A stretch of 64,000 bases of DNA from Ruminococcaceae bacterium UBA7217. GTDB lineage: Bacteria; Bacillota; Clostridia; Oscillospirales; Acutalibacteraceae. The stretch lies in assembly GCA_002490425.1 (NCBI GenBank), contig DKTZ01000035.1, positions 12,024 through 76,023 of the forward strand, given 5' to 3'. The position numbers were made by a program, and so were the translations under genes. The notes beneath the pieces are model-generated. The model was not told the DNA's origin and did no database searches. It worked only from the letters and a program-made list of their open reading frames with translations. How positions within the stretch are numbered: the first letter of the stretch is position 1; every line of letters begins with the position of its first letter. Below, piece after piece: positions 11,892 through 45,230 of this stretch.

Positions 11892-14114
11892 TTAACGCTC
11901 GACGTTTATTACGCCCTGTACTTTCTCAATTTTTGCTACGATGCTTTTAAGGTGCTCAATGCCCTCAACCTGAACGGTTACTTCAATAATACATCTGCCG
12001 TCCTTGGTATCGTGTGTGGCAAGCCCTGCAATGTTAACCTTCATATTTGATATTTGCTGGCTGACATCGGCAATAAGCCCTATTCTTTTAAGGCAGGTAA
12101 CGGTGATTGTAGCACTGTATTTGTCAGTCGTTGCCGTATCCCAATGCACCTTTACCCAGCGCTCAGGCTCTGCACAGTGGGCTATATCCGCAGGCACGTT
12201 TACGCAGTCCGCCTTATGAACGGAGACACCGTGCCCTCTCGTTATAAAGCCGATTACCTTATCGCCCGGAAGAGGATTGCAGCAGCGTGAAAACTTAATA
12301 AGACAGTTGTCTATGCCGTCAACAATAATTCCGTCCTTGGATTTTCTTTTAACAGGCTGTTTAGCAGATATTTCCTCAATGTGACTTTTATCGTAATTTT
12401 TGTGATATTCATCTTTAATATACGGCATCTGCTTTGAAACGGAAAGTCCGCCGTAGCCGATTGCCGCATAAAAATCTTCCACAGAGTCCATATGTTGGCG
12501 TGCTGCAAGCTTTTTGACGAATGTTTCGTATTCTTCTTCTGTAAGACGAATATAATTGCGCCTGAACTCACGCTCAATCTCCGCCTTGCCCTCGGCAATA
12601 TTTTCGTCACGCTTTTCGTTTTTAAACCATGAGCGAATTCGGCTTTTTGCCTTGCTTGATTTTGCAATGTTGAGCCAATCCCTACTCGGACCCTTACCGG
12701 GTTGAGAAGAGGTGAGAATTTCAACAATTTCGCCCGTTTTGACAACATAGTCAAGCGGAACTATGCGCCCGTCAACCTTTGCTCCCATCATTTTATGTCC
12801 GACCGCCGTGTGAATAGCATAGGCAAAGTCAATAATAGTTGACCCCTGAGGAACATTGATAACATCGCCCTTGGGGGTAAACACGAGCACCTCTTCGGGA
12901 ACTAAATCAGTTTTAATTGAAGATACTATTTCCCTTGCATCGCCTGACTCCTCCTGAACCTCAAGCATTTCTTTAATCCAGTTAAGTCCGTCGTTAAAGC
13001 TTTGACCTTTGCCGTTAGTCATTCCGATTTTATATTTCCAGTGCGCCGCAATACCGAATTCAGCTGTACGGTGCATATCCCAAGTACGGATTTGCACCTC
13101 AAAGGGAATAGCATCCTTGCCGACAACGGTTGTGTGAAGCGACTGGTAACGGTTAGGCTTCGGCGTTGAAATGTAATCCTTAAAACGCCCCGGAAGAGGA
13201 CTGAACATATCGTGAATTATACCGAGGCAATTGTAGCAGTCGCCTATTGTATCAACAATAATTCGAACTGCGTAAATATCGTAAATCTCGCTGAACTGCT
13301 TATTCTGCATATACATTTTGCGGTATATGCCGTGAACGCTTTTAATTCGTCCGCTGATTGCGGCATTAGGAACAGTCTCCCTGACGCGTTCTAAAATTCG
13401 CTTTTTAATGCTGTTAAGGAATTCGTTGCCCGACGCATTGAATTTGTGAAGCTGTTCTTCAATGCCGGCATAAGCCACGGGGTCAAGAAAGCGTATGGCT
13501 CTGTCTTCAAGTTCCTCTTTAAAGGAACGGATGCCAAGCCTGTGGCTTATAGGCGCAAAAATTTCCAGGGTTTCAAGCGCTTTGTCCCTTTGCTTTTGCG
13601 GGGCAACATATTCAAGAGTACGCATATTGTGAAGTCTGTCAGCAAGCTTAATTACAATAACACGAATGTCCTTACTCATTGCGAGGAGCATTTTGCTGAT
13701 GTTTTCAGCCTGCATTTCTTCTCTTGAATCCCTTTCGGAATACTGTAAATGACCAAGCTTTGTAACGCCGTCAACAAGCACGGCAATTTCACCGCCGAAC
13801 TCGGATTTCAGCTCATCAAGCGTATAATCGGTATCTTCAACAACATCGTGAAGAAGAGCCGCAACAATCGACTGATAATCCATACCGAAATCGACAAGAA
13901 TGTCGGCAACGGCAATGGGGTGAATAATGTACGGCTCGCCCGAACGGCGCAACTGACCGCCGTGCTGTTTCTTTGCAACCTCAAACGCCTTATTGATTAT
14001 ATTTATTTCGTTTTCGCTTTGATGTACTTTTTTTATCTTTTCCAAAAGCTTCGCATAAAGAGCGTCAACATCTACATCCTCTACAGGGGTTTTATCAGTT
14101 TTGATTTCACTCAT
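11892..14114 (-). CDS. relA: bifunctional (p)ppGpp synthetase/hydrolase RelA/SpoT
   Basis: HD domain (HPIAVA..LHDVVEDT), synthetase domain (YQSLHTTV, EVQIRT..MH..AE.G.AAHW.YK), and TGS and ACT regions. The likely start is the ATG at 14114, after GGAGGTG, overlapping the recJ stop as ATGAGTGA. Confidence 0.93.
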   Translation of the reverse strand: MSEIKTDKTPVEDVDVDALYAKLLEKIKKVHQSENEINIINKAFEVAKKQHGGQLRRSGEPYIIHPIAVADILVDFGMDYQSIVAALLHDVVEDTDYTLDELKSEFGGEIAVLVDGVTKLGHLQYSERDSREEMQAENISKMLLAMSKDIRVIVIKLADRLHNMRTLEYVAPQKQRDKALETLEIFAPISHRLGIRSFKEELEDRAIRFLDPVAYAGIEEQLHKFNASGNEFLNSIKKRILERVRETVPNAAISGRIKSVHGIYRKMYMQNKQFSEIYDIYAVRIIVDTIGDCYNCLGIIHDMFSPLPGRFKDYISTPKPNRYQSLHTTVVGKDAIPFEVQIRTWDMHRTAEFGIAAHWKYKIGMTNGKGQSFNDGLNWIKEMLEVQEESGDAREIVSSIKTDLVPEEVLVFTPKGDVINVPQGSTIIDFAYAIHTAVGHKMMGAKVDGRIVPLDYVVKTGEIVEILTSSQPGKGPSRDWLNIAKSSKAKSRIRSWFKNEKRDENIAEGKAEIEREFRRNYIRLTEEEYETFVKKLAARQHMDSVEDFYAAIGYGGLSVSKQMPYIKDEYHKNYDKSHIEEISAKQPVKRKSKDGIIVDGIDNCLIKFSRCCNPLPGDKVIGFITRGHGVSVHKADCVNVPADIAHCAEPERWVKVHWDTATTDKYSATITVTCLKRIGLIADVSQQISNMKVNIAGLATHDTKDGRCIIEVTVQVEGIEHLKSIVAKIEKVQGVINVER

Positions 14115-16301: not shown

Positions 16302-17228
16302 TCACCGTTTATCTGATTTCCCGACACGCTTTGACACTATATAACGCGGTCTGCCCTTTACTTCTTCATAAATTCTCGCAATGTAATAGCCAATAATGCC
16401 CAGCGCCATCATCAGAGAACCGCCTATCAAAAGTAAAAGAAGAATTACGGTTGTAAAGCCCTCAGCCGAAGAGCCGCAAAGATAACGCACAAGCGTTTGC
16501 ACCGCCAAAATTGCCATAAAGCAAAGAAGAACTGCACCGATTACCGTTACAGCCTGCAAAGGGGCGGTTGTAAACGATGTTATGTTTGAAACAGCATATT
16601 TTGTAAGCTTTGTTAAATTCCATTTTGACTTTCCGTTTGCTCTTTTTTCTACCTTAAACTCAATCTGCGTTGAATTAAAGCCTGACCAAAACGAAAGCGC
16701 CCTGAAAAAGGTGTTTCTTTCTGGCAAAGAGATGAGCGTGTCGATAACCTTTCTGTCAATAAGCTTAAAATCCGACGTTGACTGCATATCCACCCCTACA
16801 AAACGGCTGATAATTTTATAAAAGCTCTTTGCGAACATATTATACATTGCAGAGCCGCCGCCACGGTCGCTCTTAATGCCCTCAACAACCTCAAAGCCCT
16901 GCTCCCAAAGTCTGTACATTTCAACAATTTTTGAAGGCGGAAACTGCAAATCACAGTCAAATATTACTGCGCAGTCGCCGCTCGCTTCCTCAAGTCCCGC
17001 AAAAATTGCAGACTCCTTGCCGAAATTTCTGCTGAACGAAATGCCCTTTACGTTTTCATCAAACTGTGCCGACTTGCAGATTTCAAGATAGGTTTTATCC
17101 CTCGAACCGTCGTCAACGAATATGATTTCATAGGAAATTTCTTCATTTTCAAAAAGCTTCGACAGCGTTTTTGCGGCAAGAGCAATATTTTGCTCCTCAT
17201 TGTATGCGGGAATAATTACAGAAAGCAT
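16302..17228 (-). CDS. family 2 glycosyltransferase, polyprenyl-phosphate sugar transferase type (GtrB/CsbB-like) with two C-terminal TM helices
   Basis: SVIIPAYNEE, FVDDGS-D and DCDLQ motifs, plus a C-terminal membrane anchor. Confidence 0.8.
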   Translation of the reverse strand: MLSVIIPAYNEEQNIALAAKTLSKLFENEEISYEIIFVDDGSRDKTYLEICKSAQFDENVKGISFSRNFGKESAIFAGLEEASGDCAVIFDCDLQFPPSKIVEMYRLWEQGFEVVEGIKSDRGGGSAMYNMFAKSFYKIISRFVGVDMQSTSDFKLIDRKVIDTLISLPERNTFFRALSFWSGFNSTQIEFKVEKRANGKSKWNLTKLTKYAVSNITSFTTAPLQAVTVIGAVLLCFMAILAVQTLVRYLCGSSAEGFTTVILLLLLIGGSLMMALGIIGYYIARIYEEVKGRPRYIVSKRVGKSDKR

Positions 17229-17376
17229 AGCGCACCTTCTTTTAAACTTAAAAATATTGCATATACTTGTATTATAATATCACCGACACACTTTGTTGTC
17301 AATAAAACCTACTATTGAAATAGCCGCAGAATTATGTTAATATAAACTCATATAAAATAAAATCGGAGGGGTATTT

Positions 17377-18756
17377 ATGAATAAAAACGATATTGCCGTA
17401 ATTATGGCAGGCGGAAGCAGCACTCTTTTAAAATCGGCTAATTCACCTGTTCTCGCAAAGGTACTCGGGCAGCCAATGATTCAGAGCGTTACTGAAGCGG
17501 CACTGCTTTCGGGAATTGAAAGGCTCGCAATTATTGTACCCTCGGGCGACACACAAATCCGCTCGCTTATTAAAAAAGAATTTCCCGACGCAGATATTGA
17601 GTTTTTTGAGCAATCCGTACCTCTGGGCACTGCACACGCTGTACTGGCGGCACAAGAATCAATTGAAGCCGTAAAAGACGGAAATGTGCTTATTTTAAAC
17701 GGAGATACCCCGTTTATTGACGCTTCGACCATAAATTCCGCCTATGTTCTGCACACCGCTATGCAAAACGATGCAACTGTAATCACTGCAACAGTTACAA
17801 AGCCTTTCGGCTACGGAAGAATTTTAAGAGATGCAAACGAGCATTTTTCGGGAATTGTTGAAGAGGCTGATGCAGACAGCAGTACAAAGAAAATTACTGA
17901 AATTTCGTCAGGCACCTATTGGTTTAAGTCGGATGTGCTATTAAATGCTCTTCATAACCTCTCTCCCCGTGCAAACGGCCATTTTAACCTTGTAGATGTT
18001 ATTTCAAATGTAATCCGTTCAGGAATGAAGGCAGATACTTTTTTTGCGCCTAACTCCGATATTATTCTCGGTGCTAACGACCGTATTCAGCTTATGGAGC
18101 TTAATGAATACGCAAAAATGCAGACTATACAGTACCACCTTTCGGCAGGCGTTGAAATTCCGTATTCAGACGGCGTTGTTATTGAAAAGGGCGTCCAAAT
18201 CGGAACGGACACCTGCATTTTACCCGGCACAATAATTAAGGGGAAAACAGTTATCGGCAAAAACTGCGTAATAGGTCCTAACAGCGTTATTGAGGACTCG
18301 GTTATCGGCGATAATGTTAAGCTTAATCAGACCCAGTGCGAACAGTGCATTGTAAAAAGCGGTGCAAACATCGGCCCGTTTGTTCATATCCGTCCGAATT
18401 CCGTTATCGGCGACAGCGTTCACCTCGGCAATTTTGTTGAGGTGAAGAACTCAAATATTGATACGGGAACTAAGGTTTCGCACTTAACGTATGTCGGCGA
18501 CTCAGATGTCGGCAAGCGTGTAAACTTCGGCTGCGGCACTGTTACGGTTAACTATTCGGGCAAGGCAAAATACCGCACTACCATTGGCGACGATGTATTT
18601 ATCGGCTGTAACACAAACCTTGTTGCTCCCGTAACTGTGGGCAACGGCGCTTATACGGCGGCAGGCTCAACCATAACCGAAGATGTTCCTGAGGATTCAC
18701 TTGGCATTGCAAGGGCAAGGCAGGTCAACAAAATCGGCTGGAAAGTAAAAAAATAA
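17377..18756 (+). CDS. glmU: bifunctional UDP-GlcNAc pyrophosphorylase / GlcN-1-P N-acetyltransferase
   Basis: N-terminal nucleotidyltransferase (AVIMAGG, GTAHAV, LNGDTP) and a C-terminal left-handed beta-helix of hexapeptide repeats. Confidence 0.9.
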   Translation: MNKNDIAVIMAGGSSTLLKSANSPVLAKVLGQPMIQSVTEAALLSGIERLAIIVPSGDTQIRSLIKKEFPDADIEFFEQSVPLGTAHAVLAAQESIEAVKDGNVLILNGDTPFIDASTINSAYVLHTAMQNDATVITATVTKPFGYGRILRDANEHFSGIVEEADADSSTKKITEISSGTYWFKSDVLLNALHNLSPRANGHFNLVDVISNVIRSGMKADTFFAPNSDIILGANDRIQLMELNEYAKMQTIQYHLSAGVEIPYSDGVVIEKGVQIGTDTCILPGTIIKGKTVIGKNCVIGPNSVIEDSVIGDNVKLNQTQCEQCIVKSGANIGPFVHIRPNSVIGDSVHLGNFVEVKNSNIDTGTKVSHLTYVGDSDVGKRVNFGCGTVTVNYSGKAKYRTTIGDDVFIGCNTNLVAPVTVGNGAYTAAGSTITEDVPEDSLGIARARQVNKIGWKVKK

Positions 18757-18781
18757 AATTAACCGAAAGGCATTAAAAAAT

Positions 18782-19393
18782 ATGTTCAACAGATTCAAAA
18801 ATACTCCTACTGAATCTGTCGGCACACCTGAATTTATCGTGGCAGGGCTTGGAAATCCTGATAGGAAGTACACCTATACACGGCATAATTCGGGGTTTTT
18901 GTGCGTTGATATGTTATCGTCAAAGCATAATTTCAGTGTTGACAGATTAAAATTCAAATCACTTATTTGCGATACTGTTATAGCAGGACACCGCTGTATT
19001 GTAATGAAACCGCAGACCTATATGAACAACAGCGGCGAGGCAATCAGAGACTGCGCCGCATTTTACAAAATTCCGCCCGAAAAAATACTTATAATTTGCG
19101 ACGACATCAATTTAGACATTGGCAGACTTCGTATCAGGCGAAAGGGCAGTGACGGCGGACAAAACGGTATAAAAAATATTATTTACCACATGAACAGCGA
19201 CTGTTTCCCCCGTATTAAAATCGGCGTAGGCAAAAAGCCTCACCCCGATTACAATTTGGCTGACTGGGTGCTTTCGGAATTTACGAAAAAAGAGTTAGAA
19301 TCTCTTGAAAGTGTACTTAAAAATGCCTGTGACGCTGTGGAGCTTATAATAAACGGCAAAACAGACGAGGCTATGAACCTTTTTAACAGTTAA
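18782..19393 (+). CDS. pth: peptidyl-tRNA hydrolase
   Basis: GLGNP...Y..TRHN.GF, PQTYMNNSGE and GGQNGIKNII motifs. Confidence 0.92.
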   Translation: MFNRFKNTPTESVGTPEFIVAGLGNPDRKYTYTRHNSGFLCVDMLSSKHNFSVDRLKFKSLICDTVIAGHRCIVMKPQTYMNNSGEAIRDCAAFYKIPPEKILIICDDINLDIGRLRIRRKGSDGGQNGIKNIIYHMNSDCFPRIKIGVGKKPHPDYNLADWVLSEFTKKELESLESVLKNACDAVELIINGKTDEAMNLFNS

Positions 19394-33447: not shown

Positions 33448-34236
33448 TTATATGTTAAATTTTCCCAGTATATCACAAAGAATGTCGGGACGTTTTGTCG
33501 TAATATTGTCAGGACGAAGCTTTAACACCTTGTAAAAGCCGCATTTGCTGTTAACAGTCCACAAAGAAACAAGCAGTCCCTCAGCTCTGAAGGCGTTTGC
33601 AAGCTGTTTCGACGCAGTCTTATAATTGATATTTATACCAATTGCACCGCTGTTTTTTACAGTTTCGACAATGTGGGAAATGTAAGCCTCGTCATTGTTT
33701 CCGTTTAATGAAACACTGTAATTAAGATAGTAAGGAATTTGGGGGCAAAGACGCTCTACAGCCGAAACATCTTTTGCAAATATGCCCGTAAAGAAAATTC
33801 GGTCGGAAACTCCGTATTCCTTAGCATATTTCGCAACCGTGCCGAGGTTTGACGTGTCCTTTACATCTACATTAGCTTTTATATTCTTGTGTTCTGCAAG
33901 GAACTTAAAAGCCTCTCTTAAATGCACCGCACCCTCTTCGGGCTCATTATGCGACAAAACAGGTTCTCCGTTTTTATCAAAATTCAAGTCAAATTCGACA
34001 ATGTCCGCCCCTGCCTTAACGCCTTTTTCCATAGCGTCAACAGTATTCGGAGCAGTTCCGAGGCACCCGGTGTGCGCTGTTACGGTAAAGCCTTTGGGCA
34101 TAACGGGAGTATTCTTTTTAAAACATTTTATTTGAATTGTCTTTATCATCTGCGTAATTACTGCAAGCAAAGCCGCAAAAACAATAACAGTCATTATCGC
34201 AACAAAAAGTATATCCACAGTTATATCCCATTTCAA
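33448..34236 (-). CDS. glycerophosphodiester phosphodiesterase family protein, N-terminal TM anchor
   Basis: GDPD-like sequence VTAHTGCLGTAPNTVDAMEKGVKAGADIVEFDLNF... Confidence 0.7.
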   Translation of the reverse strand: MKWDITVDILFVAIMTVIVFAALLAVITQMIKTIQIKCFKKNTPVMPKGFTVTAHTGCLGTAPNTVDAMEKGVKAGADIVEFDLNFDKNGEPVLSHNEPEEGAVHLREAFKFLAEHKNIKANVDVKDTSNLGTVAKYAKEYGVSDRIFFTGIFAKDVSAVERLCPQIPYYLNYSVSLNGNNDEAYISHIVETVKNSGAIGININYKTASKQLANAFRAEGLLVSLWTVNSKCGFYKVLKLRPDNITTKRPDILCDILGKFNI

Positions 34237-34246
34237 ATATTATTGT

Positions 34247-35173
34247 TTATTTGCAGAAAAGGTCGTTGTCATCAGAAAACAGCTCTATTCCCCTGTAAGA
34301 AATTGAAAAATCTACATCAACGGGACTTCCGCCGAATTCTCCGTCCAAAGACCATTCAGTGGGTCTGTCAAAATGTATTTTAAGATTTTTTGTATGCAGG
34401 AACAAAATCTGCTCGCCGTCGTAATTATGCTTTTGAACCTTGCCGAGCAGTTTAAAGCCGTCGGGAATACCCTTTACACCACGTACAAGGAGCAATTCAA
34501 ACATACCGTCATTAAGCTTTACGTCGGAACGGTCAAAGGTAATAAGCCCTGCAACAGATGTTGAGTTTGAAATTGCGCCGAAGCTGAAATCGTCTTCAAT
34601 TATACCGTCGTCATACTCAATTCTTGCGTGAACGGGCTTAAGACCTGCGAAAAGCTTACGCGGATGAAAAACAAACGGGTCAATAAAATATGCAGCTTTA
34701 CCTAAAATGTTTTTCATTTTCTGCGGAGTGGTATATGAAAATGAGCTTCCCACGCCGAAAGAGGCAACATAGCAGAAATGCTTGTCATTAAAATTACCTA
34801 TATCGTAAGTATTTCGCTTGTCTGACATTATAAGCTCAACAGCCGAGCGAATATCCGACGGAATTTTAAGAGTTGAGGCAAGGTCGCAGGTTGAGCCTGT
34901 AGGGATATATCCGATAGGACGTCTTTCGGGAAGCGACATAACGCCGTTTATTGTTTCGTTAAGCGTGCCGTCGCCGCCGCAGCAAAGAATGACATCGTAG
35001 TTTATTCCGTATTCCTTTGCAAATTCAGTAGCGTCTCCTCTTTTGGTTGTGGTTTTTATATCGAAATCGTAGCCGAGGGTTGAAAGAACATCGACAATGT
35101 CAAATGTACCTCTCTGTGACTTAGTACGCCCTGCAGCAGGGTTAATAATAGCAAGTATTTTTTTATTTTCCAA
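34247..35173 (-). CDS. diacylglycerol/lipid kinase (YegS/DagK family)
   Basis: INPAAGR and the CCGGDGTLNE DAGK catalytic-domain motifs. Confidence 0.85.
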   Translation of the reverse strand: MENKKILAIINPAAGRTKSQRGTFDIVDVLSTLGYDFDIKTTTKRGDATEFAKEYGINYDVILCCGGDGTLNETINGVMSLPERRPIGYIPTGSTCDLASTLKIPSDIRSAVELIMSDKRNTYDIGNFNDKHFCYVASFGVGSSFSYTTPQKMKNILGKAAYFIDPFVFHPRKLFAGLKPVHARIEYDDGIIEDDFSFGAISNSTSVAGLITFDRSDVKLNDGMFELLLVRGVKGIPDGFKLLGKVQKHNYDGEQILFLHTKNLKIHFDRPTEWSLDGEFGGSPVDVDFSISYRGIELFSDDNDLFCK

Positions 35174-35287
35174 TATAATATCCTCCTTTTTTTCAAATCA
35201 CGGCAAAGTTATAAATATTCCCGTGATATTTCCTATTTTAACCTTTATCGGAGCATAAATCAAGCACTTTTTTATATCTGCGCTTGC

Positions 35288-35316
35288 TTGATTTCTGTAT
35301 GTGTTTATGATAAAAT
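35288..35316 (+). promoter_or_regulatory. sigmaA-type promoter for the downstream membrane-protein gene
   Basis: TTGATT (35288-35293), 17-nt spacer, TAAAAT (35311-35316). Confidence 0.45.
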
Positions 35317-35344
35317 TTAATTACAGTCTTTCAGGAGATATAAA

Positions 35345-35875
35345 ATGAAAAACCAGAAATTCCAGAAGCTTGCCGACATCATTATTTTCGCAATGCTCGG
35401 CACGATAATGTTTATTTCAAAAATACTTATGGAAGCATTTCCGAACATTCATTTTATCGGAATGCTTACTATGGTTTATACCGTTGTTTACAGGAAAAAG
35501 GCGCTTATTCCTATTTATGTTTATGTTTTTCTCAACGGAATTTATGCCGGATTTTCGCCGTGGTGGATTCCTTACCTTTACCTGTGGGCAATTCTTTGGG
35601 GCGTCACCATGCTTTTACCGAAAAATATGAAAAGAAAAACCGCAGTGCCTGTTTACGCAATTGTTTGCTCTCTGCACGGACTGTTTTTCGGCACACTTTA
35701 CGCCCCTGCGCAAGCGCTTATGTTCCATCTGGATTTCAAAGCAATGATAGCTTGGATAATTGCAGGACTTCCCTTTGACGCGATTCACGCCCTCGGCAAC
35801 CTTGCAGCAGGACTTCTTATAGTTCCTCTTTCTGAGGTTCTTAAAAAAATTCACAGTCCGAAAACGGCAAAGTGA
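35345..35875 (+). CDS. small polytopic membrane protein, ECF-transporter S-component-like (substrate unknown)
   Basis: 176 aa with 5-6 TM segments and an aromatic-rich core (WWIPYLYLWAILWG). There are no adjacent ECF A/T genes. Confidence 0.45.
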   Translation: MKNQKFQKLADIIIFAMLGTIMFISKILMEAFPNIHFIGMLTMVYTVVYRKKALIPIYVYVFLNGIYAGFSPWWIPYLYLWAILWGVTMLLPKNMKRKTAVPVYAIVCSLHGLFFGTLYAPAQALMFHLDFKAMIAWIIAGLPFDAIHALGNLAAGLLIVPLSEVLKKIHSPKTAK

Positions 35876-40834: not shown

Positions 40835-40863
40835 TTGACGTTTTTATACATTTCAGTTACAAT
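40835..40863 (+). promoter_or_regulatory. near-consensus sigmaA promoter for hydS-pp2c-hydA
   Basis: TTGACG (40835-40840), 17-nt spacer, TACAAT (40858-40863). Confidence 0.55.
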
Positions 40864-40897: not shown

Positions 40898-42577
40898 ATG
40901 CCGAACTGTTTAACATTAAAAAAATCCAACTGCAAAAACTGCTATAAATGTATTCGCCACTGTCCCGTAAAGGCAATCCGTTTTTCGGGAAATCAGGCTC
41001 ATATCATCGGCAACGAGTGTATTCTTTGCGGTCAGTGCTTTGTTGTCTGTCCTCAAAATGCAAAGGAAATTGTTGACGAAACCGAAAAGGTTAAGGTTCT
41101 TCTTCAGTCGGGCGACCCCGTTATTGTCAGTCTTGCACCGTCATTTGTTGCCAATTACGACGGCACGGGAATAAATTCAATGAGAAAGGCACTTAAAAAG
41201 CTGGGCTTTTACGATGTTGAAGAAACGGCAATCGGTGCAACAATAGTAAAAACAGAATACGAAAGAATGATTAAAGAGGATGAGAGGGATCTTATAATTT
41301 CCTCATGCTGTCATTCCATAAATCTTCTTATTCAAAAGCATTACCCCGCGGCGCTCCCGTACCTTGCGGACATAATGTCCCCAATGCAGGCGCACTGTAC
41401 CGATATAAAAAAGCGTTATAAAAATGCTAAAACCGTTTTCATAGGACCTTGCGTTGCAAAAAAGGACGAGGCAGAGCATTACGAGGGAATTGTCGACGCA
41501 GTTTTAACCTTTGAGGAACTAACCCAATGGCTGAAAGCAGAAAACATTGAAATTGAGTCGGAAACAGACAACGATGTTTGCAGCCGTGCGCGTTTCTTCC
41601 CGACAACAGGCGGTATACTTAAAACTATGGCTCAGGAAAACACGGGTTATACATATTTAGCAATTGACGGAGTTGAAAACTGTATTGCCGCACTTAAAGA
41701 CATCGAAAGCGGTAAAATTCATAACTGCTTTATTGAAATGTCAGCTTGTGTCGGCAGCTGTTCGGGCGGCCCCGTTATGGAGAAATACCACCGCACAGCG
41801 GCAGTTAAGGATTACATTACCATTGCAAATTATGCAGGTCCTAAGGATTTTGAGATATCTCAGCCTGCGGCAAAGGACCTTAAAAAGAACTTTGAATTTA
41901 TTGAACAGCGTCTTCCGCAGCCGAGCGAGAGTGAAATTAACGCAGTGCTTCGTCAGATGGGCAAATTCAAGCCCTCACAGGAGCTTAACTGCGGCTCCTG
42001 CGGCTATAATACCTGCCGTGAAAAGGCGGCGGCGATAATTCAGGGTAAGGCTGAAATTTCAATGTGTCTGCCTTTCCTTAAGGATAAAGCCGAGAGCTTT
42101 TCCGATACTGTTGTCAACAATTCACCAAACGGACTTATTGTACTTAACGAACAGCTTGAGGTTCAGCAGATTAACAAAGCCGCAAAAGAAATTATGAACA
42201 TCCGCTATGACTCGGATGTTCTCGGCACGCAGGTTATAAGAATCCTTGACCCTGCGCCCTTTATGAAGGTTCGTGACACAGGCAGAGGAATACACAACGA
42301 GCGTGTTTACCTTGCCGAATACAAGCGTTACGTTGAGCAAACCATTGTTTACGACCGTGATTCAAGAATGCTTGTGGGCATTATGCGTGATGTTACCGAC
42401 GAGCAGTATGAGAGAGAAAAGAAAGAGGATATAAGCAAGCAAACAGTTGAGGTTGCCGACAAGGTTGTTGAAAAGCAGATGAGAATTGTTCAGGAAATAG
42501 CATCACTTCTCGGTGAAACCGCCGCTGAAACGAAAATTGCACTTTCAAAGCTTAAGGAGTCAATAACCGATGAATGA
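40898..42577 (+). CDS. hydS: HydS-type (group C, putative sensory) [FeFe]-hydrogenase homologue with a C-terminal PAS domain
   Basis: Two CxxCxxCxxxCP ferredoxin motifs (residues 11-22 and 41-52). H-domain motifs are SSCCHS (135-140), GPCVAKKDE (183-191) and EMSACVGSCSGGP (280-292). An extra motif C365-x2-C368-x4-C373-x16-C390 follows, then a PAS-like region (about 400-520) and a helical tail. Confidence 0.8.
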   Translation: MPNCLTLKKSNCKNCYKCIRHCPVKAIRFSGNQAHIIGNECILCGQCFVVCPQNAKEIVDETEKVKVLLQSGDPVIVSLAPSFVANYDGTGINSMRKALKKLGFYDVEETAIGATIVKTEYERMIKEDERDLIISSCCHSINLLIQKHYPAALPYLADIMSPMQAHCTDIKKRYKNAKTVFIGPCVAKKDEAEHYEGIVDAVLTFEELTQWLKAENIEIESETDNDVCSRARFFPTTGGILKTMAQENTGYTYLAIDGVENCIAALKDIESGKIHNCFIEMSACVGSCSGGPVMEKYHRTAAVKDYITIANYAGPKDFEISQPAAKDLKKNFEFIEQRLPQPSESEINAVLRQMGKFKPSQELNCGSCGYNTCREKAAAIIQGKAEISMCLPFLKDKAESFSDTVVNNSPNGLIVLNEQLEVQQINKAAKEIMNIRYDSDVLGTQVIRILDPAPFMKVRDTGRGIHNERVYLAEYKRYVEQTIVYDRDSRMLVGIMRDVTDEQYEREKKEDISKQTVEVADKVVEKQMRIVQEIASLLGETAAETKIALSKLKESITDE

Positions 42578-43742: not shown

Positions 43743-43808
43743 GTCGGCGAGTATAATCAGATAAAAAACTGTTTCGGATTGTATTTGTCAACTCAAGGAG
43801 AAAGCAGT

Positions 43809-45230
43809 ATGAGAAAATTTGACACCAAGGTTCAGTATTTGAAATATAAGGTTTTAAGAGAAGTGGCTAACCGTGCGTGGAACGACACTTTGCTTCCGAC
43901 CTTGTTTGATATACCAAAGGCAATAGTTCCCGGCAAGACCTCGACCATGCGTTGTTGTGTCTACAAAGAACGCGCAATTTTGGGCGAACGTGTAAAAATC
44001 GCAATGGGCGGCAACAAGGAAAACCCAAATGTTATTGAGGTTATTGACATTGCCTGTGATGAATGTCCTGCGGCAGGTTATGAGGTAACCGACTCGTGCA
44101 GAGGCTGTCTTGCCCACAGGTGTGAGGACGTCTGCAAAAGAGGAGCTATTTCATTTGACCACAATCACGTGGCACACATTGACAAGTCAAAGTGTGTTGA
44201 ATGCGGTCAGTGCGCAAAGGTTTGCCCATATTCGGCGATTATTAACCGTAAGCGCCCCTGCCAAATCGCCTGCAAGGTAAAGGCAATTTCGATAAATGAA
44301 GAAAATGCCGCCGCTATTGACAATAACAAGTGTATTCAGTGCGGTGCTTGCGTTTACCAGTGCCCGTTCGGCGCAATTACCGATAAATCGTACATCTTGA
44401 ATGTAATTGATATGATAAAAAAGAGCGAGAACAATCAAAAATACAAGGTTTATGCCGTTGTCGCTCCGTCAATTTCAAGTCAGTTTAATTATGCAAAGCT
44501 CGGTCAGGTTATTTCGGGGCTTAAAGAGCTTGGCTTTTTTACAGTTGTTGAAGCGGCACTCGGAGCGGATATGGTAGCAATGGCGGAATCAAAAGAACTC
44601 AGCGAAAAGGGCTTCCTTACAAGCTCATGCTGTCCTGCATTTGTGCAGTATATAAAATCCTCATTCCCTGCTCTTTTGCCCTTCGTTTCTCATAACCTTT
44701 CCCCCATGGCAACGCTTGCGAAATACATAAAGGAAACAGACGGAAATGCAAAGGTTGTGTTTATAGGTCCGTGCACAGCTAAAAAAGCCGAAGCACAGCT
44801 TGACAGTGTGAAGCCTTATGTTGACTCAGTGCTTACCTTTGAGGAGCTTCAGGCGCTTTATGACAGCAAGGATATTGACATTACAACGCTTCCGGAAGAT
44901 GTGCTTGACAATGCCTCTTATTACGGCAGAATTTTTGCCCGTTCCGGCGGACTTTCCGATGCAGTGGCACAGGGACTTAAAGAACAAAATATTGACTTTA
45001 CTGTAAAACCCGCAGTTTGCGACGGAATTGAGGCTTGCAAGGTGGCTCTTCTCAAAAAAAGCAAAAATGTGCTTGATGCCAACTTTATTGAGGGTATGGC
45101 GTGCATTGGAGGGTGCATCGGCGGCGCAGGCTGTCTTACCCACGGCGAAAAGAACAAGGCTGAGGTTGACAAATATGGCAAAGAGGCTTATGAAAAAACC
45201 ATAGGCGATGCCGTATCTTTTATTAAATAA
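43809..45230 (+). CDS. hydA: [FeFe]-hydrogenase, catalytic type (473 aa; motif pattern suggests group B)
   Basis: Cys-rich N-terminus (RCC, CDEC, CRGC..C...C). Two 4Fe-4S motifs (CVECGQCAKVCP, CIQCGACVYQCP). H-cluster motifs TSSCCPAF, IGPCTAKKAE and EGMACIGGCIGGAGC. The ATG at 43809 follows AAGGAG. Confidence 0.85.
   Translation: MRKFDTKVQYLKYKVLREVANRAWNDTLLPTLFDIPKAIVPGKTSTMRCCVYKERAILGERVKIAMGGNKENPNVIEVIDIACDECPAAGYEVTDSCRGCLAHRCEDVCKRGAISFDHNHVAHIDKSKCVECGQCAKVCPYSAIINRKRPCQIACKVKAISINEENAAAIDNNKCIQCGACVYQCPFGAITDKSYILNVIDMIKKSENNQKYKVYAVVAPSISSQFNYAKLGQVISGLKELGFFTVVEAALGADMVAMAESKELSEKGFLTSSCCPAFVQYIKSSFPALLPFVSHNLSPMATLAKYIKETDGNAKVVFIGPCTAKKAEAQLDSVKPYVDSVLTFEELQALYDSKDIDITTLPEDVLDNASYYGRIFARSGGLSDAVAQGLKEQNIDFTVKPAVCDGIEACKVALLKKSKNVLDANFIEGMACIGGCIGGAGCLTHGEKNKAEVDKYGKEAYEKTIGDAVSFIK

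Follow-up and report, generated by a model that had tools for sequence, protein, structure and literature searches.

A putative H2-sensing [FeFe]-hydrogenase of the HydS type (group C, M2f) and its phosphatase partner gene in an Acutalibacteraceae genome

The name HydS was coined for a protein of Ruminococcus albus 7 (Zheng et al. 2014, as cited in PMC5707799, PMC10838669, and PMC6776011). The eight-gene cluster of R. albus was down-regulated 111-fold once a Wolinella partner removed H2 (PMC6776011), and a 90-fold down-regulation was reported for R. albus HydA2 (PMC10838669). Two other proteins, TmHydS of group C (M2f) and TamHydS of group D (M2e), are enzymes of slow turnover that bind an H-cluster and react with H2 (PMC10055695, PMC8163306). 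Sensory enzymes carry Gly, Ser, or Thr at the position of M353 (numbered as in the [FeFe]-hydrogenase CpI), M497 is unconserved, and proton-pathway residues are absent (PMC10055695, PMC8163306). Likewise, Cx2Cx4Cx16C is a common C-terminal motif of M2e and M2f enzymes, in which the proton pathway is lost (PMC8163306). Here, we describe a gene of this kind, hydS, in a stretch of 64,000 nucleotides (nt) from Ruminococcaceae bacterium UBA7217 (Acutalibacteraceae; assembly GCA_002490425.1, contig DKTZ01000035.1, forward-strand positions 12,024 to 76,023, or C56:12024-76023 in our numbering of contigs). This whole stretch is called the window below. The window's genome (G000), that of an uncultured gut bacterium, is a metagenome-assembled genome (MAG) of 1.94 Mb in 61 contigs and is 96.5% complete.

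HydS has the architecture of an M2f protein, with four H-cluster cysteines, the equivalent of the CN-binding Lys358, two N-terminal clusters, the Cx2Cx4Cx16C site, and a PAS domain. The neighborhood is also that of M2f genes, as a Ser/Thr phosphatase gene and another [FeFe]-hydrogenase gene adjoin hydS (Table 1). A 4Fe-4S dicluster match of the Fer4 type covers residues 8 to 55. The three H-cluster motifs read S135-S-C137-C138-H139-S140 (L1), G183-P-C185-V-A-K188-K-D-E191 (L2), and E280-M-S282-A-C284-V-G-S-C288-S-G-G-P292 (L3). HMMER alignments to solved group A enzymes set SSCCH on TSCCP, GPCVAKK on MPCTAKK, and EMSAC on EVMAC, and the substitutions in HydS therefore fall at CpI P301, M353, and M497. 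HydS retains all four H-cluster cysteines (C138, C185, C284, and C288) together with K188 and E191 (CpI K358 and E361), as well as both cysteines of the CC dyad in L1. The pocket positions were derived from motif alignment and from an AlphaFold2 model that carries no ligand coordinates; in the PDB search, the best sequence matches were group A enzymes, and none came from group C or D. The full-length model, built from 59 sequences, had a mean pLDDT (predicted local distance difference test) score of 89.3 and a predicted template modeling score of 0.74, and its top Foldseek matches were the [FeFe]-hydrogenases CbA5H, DdH, T. kivui HydA, and CpI (E value, ~1e-20). In Pfam, the 4-Cys stretch (residues 362 to 392) matched the "Putative Fe-S cluster" family PF04060 at an E value of 2e-11, and residues 404 to 499 matched PAS with 21.8 bits, slightly below the cut-off of 22.6. 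An earlier note on this DNA, made from its letters alone, had read SSCCHS, GPCVAKKDE, and L3 as altered H-cluster motifs and had put an extra 4-Cys site before a PAS-like region at about residues 400 to 520. [quoted passage not shown]

The group assignment was examined in a maximum likelihood tree (IQ-TREE) of 34 H-domains, which took in HydS, R. albus HydS, 15 other proteins of the M2f type whose named genomes belong to several phyla, further group A and B sequences, and the M2e-like, group A3, and group B paralogues encoded in the same genome as HydS; its group labels come from motifs, architecture, and NCBIfam matches and not from the HydDB reference set. HydS was sister to R. albus HydS (support, 98/97), and the M2f proteins formed one side of a 90/88 branch. 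A branch with 100/97 support divided all 4-Cys proteins from groups A and B, each of which was coherent (100/100 and 97/93, respectively). The identification as a HydS-type sensory hydrogenase of group C is thus upheld by M2f domains, orthology to the R. albus protein, and tree placement, and the phylogenetic check proposed earlier gave no grouping with catalytic group A. Indeed, HydS scored 92 bits against the group A model TIGR02512 (cut-off, 406) and, with its motifs SSCCHS, GPC, and EMSAC in place of the group A motifs TSCCPxW, MPCxxKxxE, and ExMACxxGCxxG, lay outside the group A clade. Its score against the group B model TIGR04105 was 198 bits, over the H-domain only and below the cut-off of 450. 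HydS shares with the group D protein TamHydS the N-terminal clusters, an H-domain with an altered pocket, and the C-terminal Cx2Cx4Cx16C motif (PMC8163306, PMC13104023). However, M2e enzymes have no PAS domain, Ser or Thr at M353, and Leu at M497, whereas HydS has a PAS domain, a C-terminal helix, and Gly at M353. The M2e-like 421-amino-acid (aa) paralogue of the same genome branched outside the M2f clade.

HydS is the orthologue of R. albus HydS, the founding member of the family. The protein of R. albus 7 (WP_013483411.1, plasmid pRUMAL01) was 72% identical over its full length in a search of annotated plasmids and carries the motifs ISSCCHSVN, IGPCVSKKDEA, IEMSACNGSCIGGP, and CGSCGYNTC...x16...C. 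As R. albus HydS already has all of them, the features of HydS are not new. The correspondence extends to the gene order LysR-adhE-kinase-ferredoxin-hydS-PP2C-hydA2, which both loci share, and the two HydS proteins have identical L1 (SSCCHS), L2 (GPC..KKDE), L3 (EMSAC.GSC.GGP), and 4-Cys motifs, a PAS domain, and the C-terminal helix. The R. albus cluster runs LysR, Rex, adhE, phosphotransferase, two 2Fe-2S ferredoxins, HydS, SpoIIE-family phosphatase, and second hydrogenase. The Rex gene, the second ferredoxin gene, and the megaplasmid location are peculiar to R. albus, whereas the locus described here is in an Acutalibacteraceae MAG and has no Rex gene in the cluster. HydA2 of the window has the motifs TSSCCPAF, GPCTAKK, and EGMACIGGC, is 77% identical to R. 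albus HydA2 in the H-domain region, and lies inside the group B clade. Although R. albus is an H2 producer, maturase genes were not found in the window's genome (see below).

Conservation was assessed in two samples. The family sample consisted of the 150 top-ranking representatives of clusters formed at 50% identity, of which the 117 full-length ones were aligned; the close-relative sample comprised 55 species-level relatives with 75 to 90% identity. A profile search of a 5.8-billion-protein set gave only relatives with 72 to 82% identity and no named distant ones, and the diverse relatives were drawn from the 50%-cluster library and by means of a degenerate DNA pattern built around the 4-Cys motif. 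HydS was matched by 979 cluster representatives at E values of 1e-30 or below, far beyond chance. Relatives with 75 to 98% identity are very abundant in gut and rumen MAGs labeled Acutalibacteraceae, Oscillospiraceae, Ruminococcus, and Clostridia.

Among the 117 relatives, the position of CpI C299 (residue 137) was occupied by Cys in 41 (35%), Ala in 35, and Ser in 30. At P301 (residue 139), 100 relatives had Pro and 9 (8%) had His. Gly was found at M353 (residue 183) in 107 relatives (91%) and Ser in 10, and M497 (residue 282) was represented by Asn (35), Ser (31), Leu (22), or Met (16). No variation occurred at the four cysteines of the H-cluster or at the four C-terminal ones (117/117), and the eight N-terminal ferredoxin cysteines were invariant or nearly so in diverse alignments. 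On the tree of this set, Cys, Ala, and Ser interchange many times at position 137, and His139 is restricted to the clade of HydS and R. albus HydS. All 55 close relatives have His139, and C137, G183, S282, every cluster ligand (the N-terminal ferredoxin cysteines included), and the QxIAxxLGE motif are equally invariant among them. Strong purifying selection acts on HydS.

These distributions modify two expectations of the earlier note. It had taken the loss of both pocket methionines as typical of sensory enzymes, which stands for M497, replaced by Ser as in TmHydS. It does not stand for M353, where all group B rows examined have Gly, including the neighboring HydA2; as group B also has the GPC motif, Gly at this position is not diagnostic of sensory enzymes. 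Of the two positions, only the loss of M497 separates group C from group B. The note had also singled out the retained first Cys of L1 for comparison with characterized HydS proteins. TmHydS, known from the residues stated in papers, resembles HydS in its order of domains (two N-terminal [4Fe-4S] clusters, H-domain, 4-Cys cluster, and PAS domain). Its proton pathway is not conserved, and that of HydS is replaced at four of five positions. TmHydS has Gly and Ser267 at M353 and M497, Ala131 at C299, and low activity (PMC10055695), whereas HydS has Cys at C299 and His for Pro301. HydS does differ from TmHydS at this position, yet Cys is present in 35% of the diverse members, and C137 therefore does not exclude membership in group C. 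The kept C299 is therefore a common and evolutionarily labile state of the family rather than an anomaly. Nor does it amount to an intact proton relay, since each of the four remaining relay residues of group A is replaced (E279 by Y121, E282 by M124, R286 by D128, and S319 by A157). The canonical proton pathway of HydS is apparently not intact.

The gene directly 3' of hydS encodes a PP2C-family phosphatase in 30 of 30 assessable M2f loci, often with an overlap. These are the M2f-type loci with enough downstream sequence among 44 full-length proteins found by the 4-Cys pattern, and they come from Bacillota, Pseudomonadota, Lentisphaerota, Melainabacteria, Spirochaetota, and others. HydS and PP2C therefore constitute the conserved unit. 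In many of these loci, a group B-like hydrogenase gene precedes or follows the pair and a small ferredoxin gene lies in front. In the window, where the two reading frames overlap, hydS is translationally coupled to the PP2C gene. The catalytic domain of this PP2C spans residues ~6 to 220, and its C-terminal half (~170 residues) had no Pfam or NCBIfam match. This half may be considered a candidate docking site for the C-terminal helix of HydS.

A different set of proteins of ~650 to 760 aa shares with HydS only the first ~400 residues, including the H-domain and the 4-Cys site. They have a different C-terminal region of 250 to 350 aa, with neither the PAS-type tail nor a PP2C neighbor, and come from Bacteroidota, Ignavibacteriota, Planctomycetota, Acidobacteriota, and delta-proteobacterial genomes or MAGs (loci L104, L106, L120, L123, L128, L129, L139, L144, L147, L157, L161, and L169). 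A group A hydrogenase gene is immediately upstream in several of them.

The output region of HydS was modeled separately. The AlphaFold2 model of residues 345 to 559 had a pLDDT of 90.0, and Foldseek aligned it to solved PAS domains with a probability of 1.0, including CitA PASc (template modeling [TM] score on the target, 0.77; root mean square deviation, 2.5 A), WalK, LOV histidine kinases, FixL, and NifL (TM score on the target, up to 0.78). Both HydS models contain the five-stranded PAS sheet. The longest Foldseek alignment (4gcz, 172 columns) extends beyond the PAS core into the following helix, which corresponds to the J-alpha/coiled-coil linker of PAS histidine kinases. This helix (residues 500 to 558) is the best-conserved part of HydS besides the cluster ligands. 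D498, T500, and the motif Q532-x-I534-A535-x-x-L538-G539-E540 are invariant or nearly so in diverse alignments, which span Bacillota, Pseudomonadota, Lentisphaerota, Melainabacteria, and Spirochaetota. The two monomer predictions show the tail as a hairpin bent at Gly539 (full-length model) versus one long helix (C-terminal model). A D-[IV]-T sequence closing the PAS core is the "DIT" motif, which couples PAS to a downstream coiled coil according to the account that PMC3183031 gives of Moglich et al.

A role of the 4-Cys cluster as a redox relay to PAS, raised again in the earlier note, had already been hypothesized in the literature. However, in a 2026 study of group D TamHydS, the C-terminal cluster stayed unreduced under 1 atm H2 and its mutation barely altered catalysis (PMC13104023). 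By analogy, a structural role or a tuning of the PAS linkage seems more likely than a relay, which we rate lower because the TamHydS cluster is not reduced by H2; TamHydS is, however, a group D enzyme without PAS.

Four intact H-domain genes were found in G000: hydS and hydA2 on the window's contig and two on contig C32, where a group A3 hydA with hydB and hydC is preceded by the M2e-like paralogue. In contrast to this set, the genes for H-cluster maturation were not detected. HydG and HydE had no match in G000 by profile search, the HydF search gave unrelated GTPases only, and tblastn of G000 with HydE, HydG, and HydF of a congener gave no match. In the congener, hydFGE sits between a V-ATPase operon and another block; in G000, both blocks are in the middle of long contigs that do not have the cluster. 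Masked or N runs in G000 do not exceed 360 nt, too little to conceal a hydEFG cluster. In one congener with both HydS and HydEFG (L091; G005:C48, genes 17220-19183), hydE-hydG-hydF lies ~5 to 7 kb from homologues (47 to 66% identity) of two window genes (~33466-35872) that are directly upstream of the LysR-adhE-hydS island.

The survey was extended to 200 genomes drawn evenly from the same family, each at least 90% complete, which together with G000 gave 201 genomes, tallied by hand. HydS was present in 88 of these, HydG in 88, and both in 47; consequently, HydG was not found in 41 of the 88 HydS carriers, G000 included. Several genera had HydS and no HydG match in both sampled species. Ten HydG-negative HydS carriers of high quality were looked at more closely. 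HydE had no match in five that are 99 to 100% complete. HydF and HydG had none in five HydS carriers that are 98 to 100% complete and have 10 to 30 contigs, one of which (G022) belongs to the HydE-negative set as well; these five genomes keep 4 to 5 intact H-domain genes. Simple artifacts do not account for these absences. The DNA identity of hydEFG between congeners is 79 to 87%, so hyper-conservation that breaks assemblies is not supported as the cause. About 25% of HydG matches lie within 6 kb of a contig start, near the expectation for genomes of 60 to 200 contigs by a rough estimate, and hydEFG is on large chromosomal contigs in many genomes. However, HydG-negative carriers are somewhat more fragmented (median, ~80 versus 50 contigs), and part of the absences is therefore probably due to assembly loss. 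For archaea and some protists, in which maturases are similarly missing, others have postulated that maturation takes an alternative route (PMC11216029); no report of maturase-less hydrogenase carriers among bacteria was found in the literature searched. We put forward, with considerable doubt, that HydS and the three other intact [FeFe]-hydrogenase homologues of this genome, and those of about half of the sampled HydS-bearing Acutalibacteraceae, may work without HydE, HydF, and HydG, either via alternative H-cluster maturation in bacteria or as [4Fe-4S]-only redox devices. The missing maturases lower confidence in holo-HydS in this organism and do not affect the identity of the gene.

The two hydrogenase homologues on contig C32 showed further peculiarities. 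The group A3 HydA (C32:82463-84202; orthologues L215-L239) has the L1 motif ITSCSPGW, with Ser at the CpI C300 ligand and the first Cys kept. Decay after maturase loss was considered as the origin of this Ser and rejected, as the motif occurs in both HydG-positive and HydG-negative genomes across the order. The M2e/group-D-like 421-aa protein (encoded within C32:75972-84202) has SSACP, SPCAAK, ELNAC, and Cx2Cx4Cx16C and no PAS. Its gene lies between a NuoE-like gene and genes for a PHP-domain protein and a histidine kinase-like ATPase, upstream of hydB-hydA, in a layout resembling that of the TamHydS locus (PMC8163306).

Overall, we assign a probability of about 0.7 to the reading that HydS is a group C (M2f) putative H2 sensor acting through its PAS domain, C-terminal helix, and PP2C on adhE and HydA2. 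As suggested by homologues and the literature, its H-cluster would bind H2 and turn over slowly, the latter because four of the five proton-relay positions are replaced, even with Cys299 kept. A redox or conformational change at the H-cluster would then pass via PAS and the DVT-linked C-terminal helix to bound PP2C. PP2C would oppose the APH-like kinase, and the phosphorylation state of a hypothetical target would set the expression or activity of adhE and of ferredoxin (Fd)-dependent HydA2, such that ethanol formation and Fd-dependent H2 production would be switched on upon H2 accumulation. HfsB of Thermoanaerobacterium saccharolyticum (hfsABCD) and Clostridium thermocellum (Clo1313_1795) has been described as homologous to R. 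albus hydS and as containing a PAS domain (PMC5707799). Deletion of hfsB raises adhE expression and ethanol yield in T. saccharolyticum and C. thermocellum (PMC5707799), which lends in vivo support to a regulatory link to adhE; adjacency to adhE is not reported for these organisms, whereas adhE is in the hydS cluster here. Several points weigh against this reading. For the group as a whole, H2 sensing still bears the label putative, and the signaling partner, the phospho-target, and any DNA-binding output are all hypothetical. The kinase-like protein has an APH/RIO fold and is not a Hanks kinase. The C-terminal cluster of TamHydS does not respond to H2 (PMC13104023), and any coupling route from the H-cluster to PAS is therefore hypothetical. 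With its kept Cys137, which the two characterized sensors lack, HydS may turn over faster than TmHydS. As maturases were not found in G000, the supply of the [2Fe] subcluster in this organism is only presumed.

The last point is also the basis of an alternative that we consider unlikely, namely, that HydS here is a redox sensor containing only [4Fe-4S] clusters (an "apo" H-site), which receives electrons from the adjacent 2Fe-2S ferredoxin and reports the ferredoxin pool to PAS-PP2C. The negative profile and tblastn searches for HydE, HydF, and HydG in G000, the HydG-negative carriers, and the five nearly complete genomes with multiple H-domain genes and no HydF or HydG match would agree with such a protein, as would the small 2Fe-2S ferredoxin gene that commonly precedes hydS. 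However, the [2Fe]-pocket residues K188, E191, C288, and S161-P162 are as strictly conserved in this clade as the cluster ligands, and this conservation counts against a [4Fe-4S]-only protein because such a protein would not need them. Moreover, about half of the carriers, close orthologues included, have HydEFG, R. albus, which has an identical HydS pocket, makes H2, and MAGs can miss genes. It is improbable that HydS is instead a slow catalytic hydrogenase, for example, one exchanging electrons with HydA2 or ferredoxin, with Cys299 as the proton donor and PAS as a modulator. In favor of this, HydS has the Cys137 that is invariant throughout the clade, its N-terminal dicluster domain is an ordinary module for electron transfer, and both TmHydS and TamHydS oxidize and evolve H2, at low rates (PMC10055695, PMC8163306). 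Set against this are the four replaced relay residues and the TmHydS variant A131C, in which restoring the Cys lowered activity (PMC10055695). HydS also groups with the sensor clade and not with A or B, hydS is invariably paired with a phosphatase gene, and a dedicated group B enzyme is encoded two genes downstream. That HydS is a decaying relic in a lineage without H-cluster maturation is hardly credible: the maturases are missing from the assembly, but the frame is intact, none of the functional residues varies among 55 related species, the operon has preserved its structure and translational coupling, and each of the four H-domain genes in the genome is intact.

Table 1. Features of hydS and its neighboring genes (positions in the window)
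Feature	Position	Strand	Remarks
LysR-family regulator, 309 aa	35964..36893	+	HTH_1 E value 1.6e-16; LysR also heads the R. albus cluster
adhE, bifunctional aldehyde/alcohol dehydrogenase, 901 aa	37050..39755	+	Aldedh and Fe-ADH domains; same place in R. albus
APH/RIO-fold kinase-like protein, 249 aa	39774..40523	+	PF01636 E value 1e-13; R. albus "phosphotransferase" in the same place
Thioredoxin-like [2Fe-2S] ferredoxin (NuoE/HoxE C-terminal type), 79 aa	40536..40775	+	Weak NuoE/HoxE/2Fe-2S ferredoxin matches
hydS	40898..42577	+	559-aa open reading frame, ATG start; putative group C (M2f) H2-sensing [FeFe]-hydrogenase
N-terminal ferredoxin-like domain	40919..41062	+	Two CxxCxxCxxxC (C12-C22, C41-C51), for two [4Fe-4S] clusters
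H-domain, residues 74-292	41117..41773	+	Pfam PF02906 Fe_hyd_lg_C, E value 2.8e-52
L1 SSCCHS	41300..41317	+	C137 = CpI C299 (kept), C138 = C300 (cluster ligand), H139 = P301
L2 GPCVAKKDE	41444..41470	+	G183 = CpI M353, C185 = C355, K188 = K358, E191 = E361
L3 EMSACVGSCSGGP	41735..41773	+	S282 = CpI M497, C284 = C499, C288 = C503
C-terminal cluster site C365-x2-C368-x4-C373-x16-C390	41990..42067	+	PF04060; also like the RnfB N-terminal FeS domain
PAS domain, residues ~404-499, ending D498-V-T500 ("DIT"-type motif)	42107..42394	+	Pfam, AlphaFold2, Foldseek
C-terminal helix or helical hairpin, residues 500-558	42395..42571	+	Q532-x-I534-A535-x-x-L538-G539-E540; proposed output element
PP2C/SpoIIE-family phosphatase, 390 aa	42570..43742	+	PF07228 E value 7e-14; ATG overlaps the hydS end by 8 nt
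hydA2, group B monomeric [FeFe]-hydrogenase	43779..45230	+	TIGR04105 FeFe_hydrog_B1, 564.9 bits (cut-off 450)

Scans for promoters and terminators gave sites no more frequent than in shuffled sequence. The sequence TTGACG-17-TACAAT at positions 40835 to 40863, upstream of hydS, is therefore a mere promoter candidate.

Two other systems offer functional parallels. In Bacillus subtilis RsbP, as proposed here for HydS and PP2C, a PP2C/PPM phosphatase is under the control of a PAS domain that acts on it via a helical or coiled-coil element (PMC3183031). RsbP is not a member of the family and is one polypeptide whose PAS lacks the DIT motif, whereas the PAS of HydS ends in DVT and PP2C is a separate protein; by analogy, HydS and PP2C may be said to resemble a split RsbP. 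The regulatory [NiFe]-hydrogenase HoxBC with the PAS-containing kinase HoxJ (Ralstonia/Cupriavidus), as outlined in PMC5707799 and PMC8163306, is a functional analogue that combines a slow H2-binding hydrogenase, a PAS signaling protein, and control of hydrogenase genes. However, its metal site and fold are unrelated, and its output runs through a histidine kinase and response regulator rather than PP2C and a kinase-like protein.

The finding of HydS is real and its reading right, but its features are published hallmarks of the family. HydS of this genome is another gut-bacterial instance of a widespread, named H2-sensing module and carries little weight alone. Only the C-terminal helix, the universal PP2C partner, the Cys-Cys-His L1, and the maturase puzzle go beyond prior description. 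The Ruminococcus/Acutalibacteraceae clade has a fixed, so far uncharacterized Cys-Cys-His variant of L1, and the lack of maturases, if true, bears on the existence of an alternative route of H-cluster biosynthesis. The invariant PP2C partner and the conserved helix after the DVT-ended PAS point to where the signal output should be sought in a module that is thought to choose, in fermenters, between ethanol with Fd-dependent H2 and acetate with bifurcating H2.

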